Of a stretch of DNA of 64,000 nt, positions 25,001-32,632 are shown in pieces. The DNA is taken from NCBI RefSeq assembly GCF_017306415.1, contig NZ_JAFKIL010000011.1; one strand, written 5' to 3'. The stretch is from Microbacterium sp. Its GTDB lineage: Bacteria > Actinomycetota > Actinomycetes > Actinomycetales > Microbacteriaceae. The notes under the pieces are model-generated. The model worked only from the letters and a program-made list of their open reading frames with translations, ran no database searches and had not been told where the DNA came from. A program made the translations under genes and the position numbers. Position 1 is the stretch's first letter; each line of letters starts with the position of its first letter.

Positions 25001-25784
25001 TCCGGCCCAGCAGCTCGGCGGCAAGGCGATCGACGAACGCCGCGGGGTCCGGTGCCTTCCACGTCGGTGCGGCCACGCCGGAGGGAAGGGTCGCCGCCCA
25101 GCCGACCGGGGGCGCGCCGCGGGAGATGCGGTCGAGGGCCGCATCCCGTGCCGGCATGGTCGCGGTCACGAGGCCCTGCTCGTACCCGTCGTAGTCGGTG
25201 CCGGGGATGCCGTCCTTGGGCACGGGCAGACCCACGTACTCGATCGGCTCCCAGTCGGGGGCATTGACGATGTCGTCGAGAGACACGATGCGCGTGACCG
25301 GATCGACTGCGTTCGTGATGATCGCGCACGTGGCGCCCGGGGTACGCAGCTCGACGTGCGCCGTGGGGCTGCCGGTGCCGGAGGTGCCGATCGCGGTGAC
25401 GGACTCCTTCGCGCCCGTGCGCCAGCACAGGCGCACCACCACCGGCTGGGACGGATCCGCGACGCCGCAGTCGATGACGACGCGGCCCGCCGGCGTTCCC
25501 CAGTCGACGCGCAGCGCACCGTCTCCGGTGGGCTGCACGGCGACGTCGGCGGGCCGCGCATCCGTGGAGGTCGCCGGACGGCGCCACACGGTGAAGACAC
25601 CGTGCGGCACCCCCAGGTCCCCGTGGCATGCCCACGCGAGGCGCAGGGTGAGCCCGCGGGATGCCGCAGGGTCGCCCTGGCCGTCGGCGGGCGGGAGCTG
25701 CTGCCCGTGCGACTTCGCCACGGCGGCCCAGTCGATTCCGACCGCCTCCGCGCGGAAGAACCCGGGGTTCGGGATGCGGGCCAT
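22017..25784 (-). CDS. Large hypothetical protein (1255 aa), beta-rich, probable Ig/FN3-like modules
   Basis: ATG 25784 overlaps the upstream stop (TGATG); MARIPNPGFF...; LSDVHGIWSPW and VRAV...SPASD segments resemble FN3-like strand ends; no signal peptide. Confidence 0.85.
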   Translation of the reverse strand: MARIPNPGFFRAEAVGIDWAAVAKSHGQQLPPADGQGDPAASRGLTLRLAWACHGDLGVPHGVFTVWRRPATSTDARPADVAVQPTGDGALRVDWGTPAGRVVIDCGVADPSQPVVVRLCWRTGAKESVTAIGTSGTGSPTAHVELRTPGATCAIITNAVDPVTRIVSLDDIVNAPDWEPIEYVGLPVPKDGIPGTDYDGYEQGLVTATMPARDAALDRISRGAPPVGWAATLPSGVAAPTWKAPDPAAFVDRLAAELLGRIAGLYAPGLPENEQARVTNPTPVAGPPGRPASIDAAPWPLLSIPVVSDPFANLALGFGTAYPFRTARTTAVALPPAPEFLVTATYAAGPVFRASGPGWNVEVPLPAGEYAAYAPPVMHGQTPAPLPYAAARYSLQPPAALDAPWRENVRSTWPPLSADAATVHVTQFAPVRTTSGAGIAEPLFAFEPDVDGWRIPNVPPLAPGESLLASVDPVTDIPLGSGGRHELYAAALSDVHGIWSPWTETLYAGIEPAATLPMLANLTLRATYAGAPQCPATLDVDVIVEFAERSTTSVEFSAVLYPMTSPAMPPPTGIGPEAVPAGAVRRSFSLSFAGDVPTGVGCTVAPLDENGIPAAAAGPGQGEPRRFAVHVDLPALDFSATDRWGVDVWARRALAVGPSPTAWAPDDPARAILASVGSPVPVIPATTPLPGVPLASLPDSDGRSHVRVVWGAAAANVKSFVVWQASEQYLRERCGVAEPAPGVVPGARLVAVRQLLIAHPEECRLAFRRVLEVPGDRREADVALARGTTGIQFFVVTSTTPSGADSPWPYNTAAQDVTQVFIAPRVVQPAQPLARPEVTVAGADLDLEVPSDVPVSRFRVYRTHAFDAARRADSMGAPAFAAATAPADPPAPADLDLVTGQPIFRGRWTGALEPSWKTWYVRAVAEPDTSGIPERAWRGILSPASDIVTVRVPPAGPPDLDPLVVESASPDHSVLVARTSTSAPIADTDFGPHLVGGLTAAALTEEGMAAASLVPLSALAAVDPAAPAAGVAVVVRGERAGGRTPLAVWFTRADPTQPVDVGLRLVDPLGRAAEQVAHVAGWTAPQPPNLELVAVTRASATAVVVTVSSTEGRTARPPFVLSVSAARRIVIGPPLGGHVRDAVAGGALAGGAVAGGGTMRDAVGGTAHVLPVLPGLPLGPTLTASIALPDIRRDGGRPLPIPFPPRPPVSGIRFAYRDELGGALYDIYIPLAATMSATVTLTAPEGPHTSVRATG

Positions 25785-31700: not shown

Positions 31701-32632
31701 CCGCCGTGCGTGTCGATGAACAGGGTCGATGCGGCGGGGACGGTGGCGGTGCCGTGCGCGGGGTCGGCCGTCGGGTCGGCGATCGTGACCGGGATGTAGG
31801 TCCCGGCATCCGTGAGCACGTGCGCCGACACCGTGAGCTCGGCGGCGTTCACGACCTCCGCCTCGAAGATCGCGGTCAGGCCGGCGCTCGCTCCGACCCC
31901 GATGTACATGTCCCGCGCGGCCGCGGTGATGTACAGGTCTTCGAGGCCGGGGGGCTGCACGAACACGCGCACCTCGGGCAGGTAGAAGCCCTGCCACGCG
32001 TTCGGCATGGCGCGGGCGCCCGCAGGGAGGCCGCTCGGCCCCGCCTCCGAGCTCAGGTCGAGGACGGCGGCGCGGAATCCGATGCCCACCGTGGCCTCGG
32101 GGCCGACCGTCGCGTAGGGCGGCTCCATCCGAACGAGGTCGTAGATCTTGTCGACCGGGTTGCCGGTGGTCGACGCCGACAGGAAGTCGAACTGCACCGA
32201 CTGCCCCTCGAGCTGCATGAGGCGGAGCTTGAGGCCGCCGACCACCATCGAGACGTGGTCGACGCTCGGGTCGGGCAGGAGCCGTGCGTTGGCGACGTCG
32301 TAGGTCGCCGGACTCAGGAACGGGAGGTGCACGGCGACGACCGGACAGGTCAGGATGACGCGCCAGCCGCCGTCGTCGGCGGCCGCCGTCTGGTGGAGCC
32401 CGATCTCGATCGTGATGTTCGGGTCGCGGAACTCGATCGGCGTGCCGCCGCCCGGGATGCCGCCGAAGCCGCCGAGCGTCAGAAGACTGTCGGCGCGGTA
32501 GGTCTTGGTCCAGACCTTCCAGTCGCCGTCGGTCGTCGGACCGGTCGCGCCGCCGGCCTTGAGGGCGTCTTCCAGCGCGCTGAGGGCGCCGCCGTTCTTG
32601 GCGGCATCCGGCAGATCATCCCATTGCGTCAC
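25784..32632 (-). CDS. Giant hypothetical protein (~2280 aa) with OmpA-like motif and DUF6603-like beta-rich region
   Basis: 6.85-kb uninterrupted ORF with sensible composition; GTG 32632 after GAGGG (alternative GTG 32680); FFVFDHP...VDGYAS...YNRDLSHRR at ~31250-30930. Confidence 0.88.
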   Translation of the reverse strand: MTQWDDLPDAAKNGGALSALEDALKAGGATGPTTDGDWKVWTKTYRADSLLTLGGFGGIPGGGTPIEFRDPNITIEIGLHQTAAADDGGWRVILTCPVVAVHLPFLSPATYDVANARLLPDPSVDHVSMVVGGLKLRLMQLEGQSVQFDFLSASTTGNPVDKIYDLVRMEPPYATVGPEATVGIGFRAAVLDLSSEAGPSGLPAGARAMPNAWQGFYLPEVRVFVQPPGLEDLYITAAARDMYIGVGASAGLTAIFEAEVVNAAELTVSAHVLTDAGTYIPVTIADPTADPAHGTATVPAASTLFIDTHGGSGANTVTISPDNASIVVGTRAAITTDAGGTTIQITVVDAAAGITKHLTVTTTLDTSAAGTGGGGVTSLSLTPTSPLVPYRMVADSLDPAVVRLDPAPPPTATIAWTSSAVSIIGDTDTAEVTLDTSALTTTHPLHTDLAVTVSGGAAVVSDCFFVFDHPKPAELATPTWARNPANTRDQKSPARDQHAASRSYIDAAKDLATYLPLDTELTVDGYASYENDQDQYNRDLSHRRLQAALSILQDAGFTKAKEGTPFGSANAHAGTPPRTDTAPPPPTPAPPAEGDGFWWLARAWAPAAPAANVTATLEVTREEWGGDTAQKDVTPAKQPQPSCFRRIGVRVEILRDTFIRAEVWGEFDFSKAADQSKPGLGLTDQQHQDNPADGIVDFLVRLRISEDRQSWEVDAEFRAHDKDKDGLYQRKRGDGIPDLVIDGVGALAVLAPLTAAASSLSPAAGGVVALGAVAIGALGVLETQELTLYGGELVVANGIVSADGSTGNAAAGYKVAVFFDVETKFAFDLKIIRTAEGKPMSARYKAIGVAGEWGSAANPDFRPLAVFDPAKGYTIDAPDGSLVATPPLDEILRIFGFKVSRDNPMFVEVQFGIGLELGIVTIDTATVRADFNGSGAPDISISRLSATLDVPGVLHGTGYVAISESQISGGFDVSVTSVNIRISATLTIHPDPDGGPNIGILFGAAVEFPAPILLGASGLGIYGFLGGMGINFARSYDETAELPALDWAITHLKNNDLFTDQAWHYDKDAYSFGAGLVLGTADGGFTLNLKGVLLISTPGPDITLLALANVFAPTLPELGGDTTATIIAVIDLDFGRGTVLIALRIEYAIGSLLSVTVPVTAFFDTKHTSHWYVELGSYDHPATVKVLDMFTGSGYLEVHGDGIHLPTSPPLGSDGLVFATGFHIEAVLMGSESIGLYFKAAAGFDALFAPDPLYVGGIIEVSGELRLWIISISASAKLVIIYRGATDQLYVHGEVHGKVDFFFFSVEGSVELTIGDDPGIVPPTVQDLVTGVGLVTRTIHVLLEGAGVGEPVDGVIAKAVEGGGAVPDDVPIDAIPVVSFLTLAKTDQADILGGVLGTYGGAPANPWMQLGDHWWRYEVTAVRLTGGALIPPTPAGESAASVWWVQKSDAQAMSLQLALLDWTPDPHPAAVPCGEALTTTVDERWGTICATAAAPASVLWTFDGQPLGPSPAGWALAGIPWPDAPGTVRTAPVRTGMTVTEPWRIAPAVDQLQGTDPAVVVGDAVPCHDRSVRDSRAAMSRWAQSPAAGVSLRGRLAGASALAGLDAHAAAGGSLYDHPAAEQATAWDPATVSAFARAAAATGSRSAVQDAGCFGEILRSPKHDLADPAPGGDDLARKLVEEAWAASGFTPDRLADGVSFAAGNPGDGDGFESVGLLMLMPRIGLEYGLTVSARAEDGSELEAHRVDGSDLVPSPTPIPGTWIDPAGPWAEPVSRAGHLAGRLMSTEKLVAVYVRLDGLGGKAARIVTGWDRRRSTTSFPAYYVVAVEAVLASETRRYDWDTSTLNADQQALNTALTQPAGSEPLLTPGTTYAVEVDWQATWLPVTGDPHSPPQGQPPAATLGPGDLPGDHTSTKTQSFRFRTTAPATVPSDVVTDLSPWVLGTVPAADETGVFTHAGVSITFSSQRVAALFDAYGLELYAVVHAASGIHPRLADQPDEPVPQVPLVGGSAYATAIDPYGVTTPWREAVEGLVVDLGCLDASGFDHSTFTVTLPYIFEPLTEYLLDVHARRKGAGGTGDIVYRVPFRTGRFADAADLAAFVGGSRGEGRGILTPSALAPLVGSVPGPVLDDAFEQAGLGAPQVPGFPAVHVLWTTDPVPQPVAVVVESSEQIVRSRPTPQKVDAAATDPDPTHHYWASVPWPWLTVAAAVGPADPGLPDAPVSRVATGPGGTRAIAFLGPNARGTRLRLDLVTDLDGPAGSAEARTPLLSVPLVAAPWEEED

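Follow-up and report, generated by a model that had tools for sequence, protein, structure and literature searches.

In a stretch of 64,000 nucleotides from Microbacterium sp. (assembly GCF_017306415.1, contig NZ_JAFKIL010000011.1; the window), a giant gene, here called gene A, forms a conserved two-gene cassette with the gene directly downstream, gene B. Both genes are intact and under purifying selection. The A-B pair alone is the conserved unit of transfer, so that the real unit is the two-gene cassette, which is accessory and horizontally mobile between bacterial phyla. No described kind of system corresponds to the cassette; the novelty lies in the system, the gene A copy being one more member of a database family. 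Concerning its function, our tentative reading, which may well prove wrong, is that A and B form a leaderless, wall-anchoring and membrane-engaging conflict complex. The elements of the cassette are:

25784..32632, minus strand: gene A, a giant protein of 2,282 amino acids (aa) from GTG 32632; the reading frame is open from GTG 32680
32639..32644, minus strand: Shine-Dalgarno sequence GAGGGG of gene A, as read in the sequence, 6 nt before GTG 32632
22017..25784, minus strand: gene B, a 1,255-aa partner with no known domain, directly downstream of A
25782..25786, minus strand: TGATG junction, in which A's stop codon and the ATG of B share one base; a GGAGG lies within the last codons of A
22017..32714, minus strand: the whole conserved cassette of 10.7 kb (gene A, gene B and a leader of ~80 bp), as delimited by the blastn block

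The G+C content of the window is about 72%, and long open reading frames (ORFs) are therefore found on both strands. The codon-position GC of the minus-strand ORF 25784..32680 (0.70/0.53/0.95, i.e., a GC3 of 0.95) identified it as a real high-GC gene. The plus-strand ORF 25661..32749 was rejected as a gene; its translation is Arg-rich nonsense, and it is the antisense shadow of gene A. The ratio of nonsynonymous to synonymous substitutions (dN/dS) between gene A and its relatives was 0.15-0.29, and gene A is therefore functional. Its start is likely GTG 32632, because GAGGGG lies 6 nt upstream and a 100%-identical database protein is 2,282 aa long; full-length homologues measure 2,230-2,470 aa. 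The coordinates 25784-32632, proposed in an original prediction made from the letters of the window, match this likely start and the stop exactly. Residue numbers are counted here from GTG 32680, and subtracting 16 gives the numbering from the likely start. The same prediction had described a giant protein without a signal sequence, and this description holds: no N-terminal hydrophobic segment was found in the gene A protein or in 66 aligned homologues (median maximum Kyte-Doolittle value 0.23, using 19-residue windows starting in the first 40 residues, i.e., covering the first ~58 residues). A monoderm host is also reasonable, as a flanking P-type ATPase is 99% identical to a protein of a Microbacterium metagenome-assembled genome (MAG); Microbacterium is a monoderm without a mycolate outer membrane.

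The one-base TGATG overlap was kept in 58 of 64 loci, and A and B are translationally coupled via this conserved overlap. Wherever a fetched locus contained enough DNA, A was immediately followed by B, whose sequence identity was 38% to the Kribbella and 30% to the Chromobacterium copy. No Pfam, PHROGs or PADLOC match was obtained for B, and its comparison with the sequences of solved structures gave chance-level matches (E 0.11-0.74), none of them at E <= 0.1. When all flanking ORFs were clustered across loci, no recurrent neighbor family was found besides B. Using blastn against the cassettes of Salinibacterium, Lacisediminihabitans, M. mangrovi and two MAGs, 79-83% identity was observed over positions 22017/22021 to 32643/32714; the block ended at 32714 in four of the five loci and at 32643 in M. 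mangrovi, and there was no match outside it. Two repeat tracts lie close to its borders. On the upstream side, a 500-bp gap precedes the cassette, and in it, immediately beyond the shared block, about 46 copies of GCGACG-type hexamers form a tract of ~270 bp (32788-33061). On the downstream side, ~80 bp past the stop codon of B at 22017 and likewise beyond the conserved block, lies a tandem array of 3.4 copies of a 38-bp unit (21811-21939, 94% match).

Several diderm lineages, namely Chromobacterium, Methylobacillus, Acidobacteria and a further one, carry a third gene, C, after B; it encodes 1,032-1,119 aa and is absent from gene A's own genome. Its four copies, sharing 48-60% mutual identity, are located as follows:

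L002:20966-24064: third-gene copy
L080:20789-24148: third-gene copy
L081:20851-23949: third-gene copy
L082:20965-24276: third-gene copy

Residues 67-159 of the third-gene product weakly resemble the N-terminal domain of a podophage tail fiber (8jov_1, E 2.4e-4). A PLD-like HKD motif seen by eye in one copy was discarded, as it is not conserved in the others.

When 185,579 species were scanned, with one genome per species, 369 relatives of A were identified. The cassette is present as a single copy in its genome, and B was detected in only 3 of 36 genomes of the same genus, at ~42% identity; the cassette is accessory because so few of these genomes carry it. In a phylogenetic tree, two unrelated cassette lineages were found within Microbacterium, and the lineage of gene A grouped with Salinibacterium, Lacisediminihabitans, M. 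mangrovi and Demequina. The synonymous divergence (dS) between the gene A copies of Salinibacterium, Lacisediminihabitans and a Microbacteriaceae MAG was just 0.065-0.11, which points to very recent transfer of the cassette between genera. Two further copies are carried by replicons of the plasmid collection, the mobilizable Paracoccus aminophilus plasmid pAMI4, on which A is annotated as 'outer membrane protein', and a Rhizobium tropici replicon; no copy was present in 50,697 phage records. An empty site could not be demonstrated in genomes of the same genus, where the flanking genes are not adjacent. Two-gene cassettes labeled Proteobacteria (a Brevundimonas MAG and an alphaproteobacterial MAG) nest in actinobacterial clades near Cellulomonas and Mycetocola; these copies are explained either by cross-phylum transfer or by an error in MAG binning.

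Gene A encodes an almost all-beta, leaderless protein, in which an N-terminal domain is followed by PKD/immunoglobulin (Ig)-like modules, an OmpA-like domain, an Ala/Gly-rich hairpin, a DUF6603 region of ~550 aa, a Trp/Cys domain and a C-terminal region. The boundaries, obtained from family profiles, alignments and AlphaFold2 (AF2) models, are:

31781..32632, minus strand, residues 17-300: all-beta N-terminal domain, family-specific and among the best-conserved parts
31247..31780, minus strand, residues ~301-478: two PKD/Ig-like beta-sandwich modules (profile matches, AF2 beta-sandwich strands)
30731..31243, minus strand, residues 480-650: predicted OmpA-like domain of the peptidoglycan-binding type (family profile, invariant residues, AF2)
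30290..30421, minus strand, residues 754-797: conserved Ala/Gly-rich hydrophobic segment with three short predicted helices
28664..30304, minus strand, residues 793-1339: divergent DUF6603 core with ~28 long amphipathic antiparallel strands (AF2, hhalign)
27911..28633, minus strand, residues 1350-1590: conserved Trp/Cys-containing region, in which C1505, C1583 and many Trp are invariant
27641..27910, minus strand, residues 1591-1680: variable, indel-rich helical linker with the highest column entropy and most insertions of the family alignment
25787..27640, minus strand, residues 1681-2298: C-terminal region, conserved across phyla and non-polymorphic, ending in APWEEED

An OmpA-like segment had been claimed by eye, and all quoted motifs were found, FFVFD...VDGYASYE...NRDLSHRR at residues 480-560 and an Ala/Gly/Val stretch at 758-796. 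In a single-sequence search, Pfam PF00691 stayed below its gathering threshold (12.1 bits, E 0.25, cut-off 27.2, residues 535-577). A profile of 32 homologues retrieved solved OmpA-like domains at residues 525-658, namely 6u83_A (E 2.4e-4), RmpM 1r1m (0.009), OprF 5u1h (0.026), YfiB and others, and a second profile of 57 sequences reached 16 different OmpA-like structures at the same position. Residues G541, S544, N553, L556 and R560 are invariant in the family, and S557 and R559 are nearly so. The family motif reads VxGYASYE...YNxxLSxRRAxAL; the gene A copy has NRDLSHRRL, with Leu at the Ala position. It is thus at the profile level that the predicted OmpA-like domain is supported, and at this level the original claim was borne out. 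The AF2 model of residues 480-620 shows alternating helices and strands (pLDDT 80-93); in the Foldseek comparison it was the beta core that determined the ranking. With the C-terminal domains of OmpA-like proteins (PF00691) the segment shares the NxxLSxRR core and, as predicted by AF2, may share the alpha/beta fold. In contrast to usual OmpA-like domains, it lies in the interior of a leaderless monoderm protein of 2,282 aa, and the (G/T)D of the ligand pocket reads GYAS in A, as it likewise does in 6u83_A. Some homologues of gene A carry PG_binding_1 at the N-terminus.

The Ala/Gly-rich segment that follows has a Kyte-Doolittle maximum of 1.9-2.2 over 19 residues, and its pattern LGA..L.PL.AA..P.SP.AG is kept from Actinomycetota to Chromobacterium. 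Residues 480-1679 were modeled with AF2 from an alignment of 57 sequences (pLDDT 70). The order in this model is an alpha/beta OmpA-like unit, two beta-hairpins, helices at residues 754-793 (pLDDT 71-84) and ~28 antiparallel strands in 797-1350. These strands are 9-22 residues long with a pLDDT of mostly 75-92, their two faces differ in mean Kyte-Doolittle value (+2.3 vs -0.8), and Gly makes up 12%. A beta-rich stretch of ~600 aa had been predicted, and it corresponds to residues ~797-1350 (30290-28630 of the window).

The by-eye assignment of this stretch to DUF6603 was confirmed by hhalign, which aligned the family with canonical DUF6603 proteins at a probability of 98.4% (E 6e-15, 459 columns; A 793-1339 corresponding to canonical 378-891). 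The gene A protein itself is too divergent for Pfam and gave no match to PF20248 at E <= 1; homologues at 40-42% identity pass the model with 29-47 bits (cut-off 27), mostly over half of its length. Comparing the core model to the PDB with Foldseek gave weak resemblances, the 50 best hits being outer-membrane barrels of very large size (PapC/FimD ushers, SlpA, LptD) and the belt of ApoB100, a lipid-wrapping beta-belt. Nothing meaningful was obtained against BFVD.

The N-terminal domain is all-beta in the AF2 model (pLDDT ~80-90; 77 for the model of the N-terminal 484 aa, which is all-beta as well). No relative was found in the PDB using Foldseek with this model, the matches being strings of Ig-like domains. 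Among 1.84 billion proteins, a profile of the domain found 304 representatives. As the complete ones are all 2,200-2,500 aa long, the domain is exclusive to the gene A family. Profile positions 300-390 match PKD-repeat surface proteins, with 8-16 stretches in each, and show weak PDB matches to Ig-like phage decoration proteins. Ig/FN3-like modules had originally been placed at the C-terminus; such modules do exist, as PKD/Ig-like modules at residues ~301-478, and the C-terminal region gave weak Big_5/fn3 matches in 5 of 54 members. A profile search of the C-terminal region against PDB sequences found no match at E <= 1. The AF2 model is poor in residues 1350-1590 (pLDDT 40-70). At least four of the eight cysteines of A are invariant across phyla, and C659 is nearly so.

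Among 301 Actinomycetota genomes, 5 contain canonical DUF6603 proteins (1,135-1,230 aa), which are encoded in a four-gene operon with the order PhoD-like/DUF7800, DUF6603, a ~1,000-aa protein and a ~1,600-aa protein; the PhoD-like and DUF7800 matches of the first protein are weak, and the ~1,000- and ~1,600-aa partners have no known domain. These systems resemble the A cassette in the homology of the core and in forming operons of several very large, leaderless, domain-poor proteins. Their operon partners, however, are unrelated to B, to the rest of A and to the diderm third gene. Using hhalign, we rejected A as a fusion of a canonical DUF6603 protein with its downstream neighbor, and B or the third gene as counterparts of the canonical partners. 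The open-access literature that was searched contains no mention of DUF6603 or PF20248. In line with the earlier view of an uncharacterized family, databases list its members as hypothetical, 'OmpA-like domain-containing' or 'DUF6603 domain-containing'.

Tc (ABC) toxins are alike in forming leaderless operons of two or three giant proteins (here ~2,300-2,400, 1,200-1,250 and, in diderms, 1,030-1,120 aa), in moving horizontally and in having Ig-like modules of the receptor-binding type. However, A is almost all-beta, whereas the core of TcA is a helical shell and channel, and the cassette has neither an Rhs cocoon nor a variable toxic tip. The cassette is unrelated to Tc toxins in sequence, and the Tc signatures VRP1, TcA_TcB_BD, SpvB, RHS and those of other Tc families are absent from A, B and the third gene; a TTc_toxin_rep match in 1 of 54 members (E 0.011) was dismissed as noise. 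Regarding contractile injection systems and phage tails, there was no significant PHROGs match for A, B or a 526-aa gene downstream of the cassette, and no capsid, sheath, tube or baseplate gene was found near the cassette. Nor is the layout that of a polymorphic toxin, as the last 600 aa of A are well kept between phyla, B has a length of 1,255 aa and no small ORF downstream is conserved. PADLOC gave no match for A, B or the flanking genes, NCBIfam and PHROGs found nothing in A, single-sequence PDB searches of A and B found nothing, and no enzymatic, NTPase or defense domain was detected with Pfam, NCBIfam, PHROGs or PADLOC.

In the conflict complex that we tentatively propose, A and B would assemble in a fixed ratio into a large complex working outside the cytoplasm; lysis, or a route for which the cassette has no genes, would release it. 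Docking on peptidoglycan would fall to the OmpA-like domain (in some relatives to PG_binding_1), and docking on surfaces to the PKD/Ig modules. The hydrophobic hairpin and the amphipathic DUF6603 sheet may engage or insert into a membrane. On this reading the complex would not be a housekeeping lipid bridge; organisms in conflict would use it for breaching envelopes, forming pores or delivery. Hints of action outside the cytoplasm come from the wall-binding-type domain, the PKD modules and the conserved cysteines, and the conserved hydrophobic hairpin together with the amphipathic, Gly-rich sheet suggests membrane engagement. A further hint of membrane activity is that giant membrane barrels and the ApoB100 belt were the sole Foldseek resemblances of the core. 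That the cassette is accessory, mobile and enzyme-free suggests a conflict device over a housekeeping one.

Several observations weigh against this proposal. The hydrophobicity of the Ala/Gly-rich segment does not exceed that of some buried strands, and ordinary soluble beta proteins also have amphipathic strands. The Foldseek matches are weak (target-normalized TM-score, TMt, <= 0.31) and do not tell barrel, groove and sandwich apart. No toxin or catalytic domain was found, and the C-terminal ~600 aa of A are conserved instead of polymorphic. By flanking-ORF clustering and N-terminal hydropathy, no export signal, holin, secretion gene or immunity-like gene conserved with the cassette was found either. 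A wider form of the proposal, which we consider rather doubtful, is that A-B(-C) represents an unrecognized class of NTPase-free, leaderless machine that, docked on peptidoglycan, would push the DUF6603 core with its hydrophobic hairpin, a giant amphipathic beta-sheet, into a membrane, as an envelope-breaching or delivery complex common to monoderms and diderms and spread horizontally.

Alternatively, the cassette might be an intracellular anti-phage abortive-infection system, in which both giants would stay in the cytoplasm, sense infection and kill via the membrane from inside. The genes are leaderless, patchy and mobile, they lie in a variable region holding a DUF222/HNH-type gene, and a membrane-active core would suit an abortive-infection effector. 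Nevertheless, we consider this explanation improbable: neither a PADLOC match nor a nuclease, NTPase or sensor domain was found, the neighbors are not recurrent defense genes, and both the conserved cysteines and the domains (peptidoglycan-binding-type, PKD-like) favor an extracytoplasmic location. The neighbor in question is a DUF222 protein (PF02720, E 3e-22) encoded upstream on the same strand (33187-34623, minus), which is not conserved with the cassette elsewhere; in actinobacteria, DUF222 proteins are commonly associated with HNH endonucleases and with regions that are mobile or variable.

Equally unlikely in our view is a non-toxic surface structure, such as an adhesin, a matrix or S-layer-like scaffold or a phage-derived fiber-bearing particle, which would hold its own wall via the OmpA-like domain and other surfaces via the PKD/Ig modules. 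Such PKD/Ig-like and wall-binding domains are typical of surface proteins, the S-layer barrels of Deinococcus SlpA were among the weak Foldseek matches, and the N-terminus of the diderm third gene resembles the podophage tail-fiber domain mentioned above. However, A lacks a secretion signal, a sortase motif and an SLH domain, and neither PHROGs matches nor copies in phage records nor structural phage genes nearby were found.

An envelope-spanning bridge carrying lipid or protein along a beta-groove (TamB/AsmA/YhdP- or VPS13-like) and anchored on peptidoglycan via the OmpA-like domain, as the original prediction had suggested, would fit the long amphipathic sheet with one hydrophobic face, the peptidoglycan-binding-type domain and the weak match to the lipid-binding belt of ApoB100, but is the least probable explanation, since neither Pfam (in A or homologues) nor the 50 best Foldseek PDB matches contained TamB, AsmA or VPS13, A has no signal peptide, N-terminal membrane anchor or export signal, the cassette is accessory (3/36 genomes), horizontally transferred and found on plasmids, unlike a core envelope gene, and one architecture serves monoderms and diderms despite their different envelopes. 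The lipid-bridge part of that prediction is therefore not supported, and an envelope-spanning housekeeping machine is a poor fit; the toxin-like or injection-associated role that the prediction also offered may or may not apply. That the unit comprises two genes had escaped the prediction.

Whatever the function, the two genes together encode ~3,500 residues whose conservation extends from Actinomycetota to Acidobacteriota and Proteobacteria; they are under purifying selection, move as one unit and match no studied system. The size of the cassette permits cloning and expression as a whole, and with tractable carriers such as Rhizobium tropici CIAT 899, Paracoccus aminophilus pAMI4, Chromobacterium and Kribbella its function is directly testable. 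If A and B indeed formed a membrane-breaching or delivery complex, this would be a new class in bacterial conflict and secretion biology, and the DUF6603 superfamily, found again in many further operons of giant proteins, would gain its first function.

Further features of the window were noted outside the cassette. The 526-aa gene mentioned above (19970-21550, minus strand) contains 27-bp tandem repeats and is not part of the cassette; its Pfam match to the Spt5 CTD nonapeptide repeat is probably a repeat artefact. The G+C content dips to 0.60-0.63 at positions 42000-45600, compared with ~0.72 elsewhere, which suggests a foreign island. On the plus strand, a 530-aa protein (13701-15293) contains three CW_binding_2 repeats (E 2.5e-46) and an Excalibur calcium-binding domain and is therefore wall-associated.

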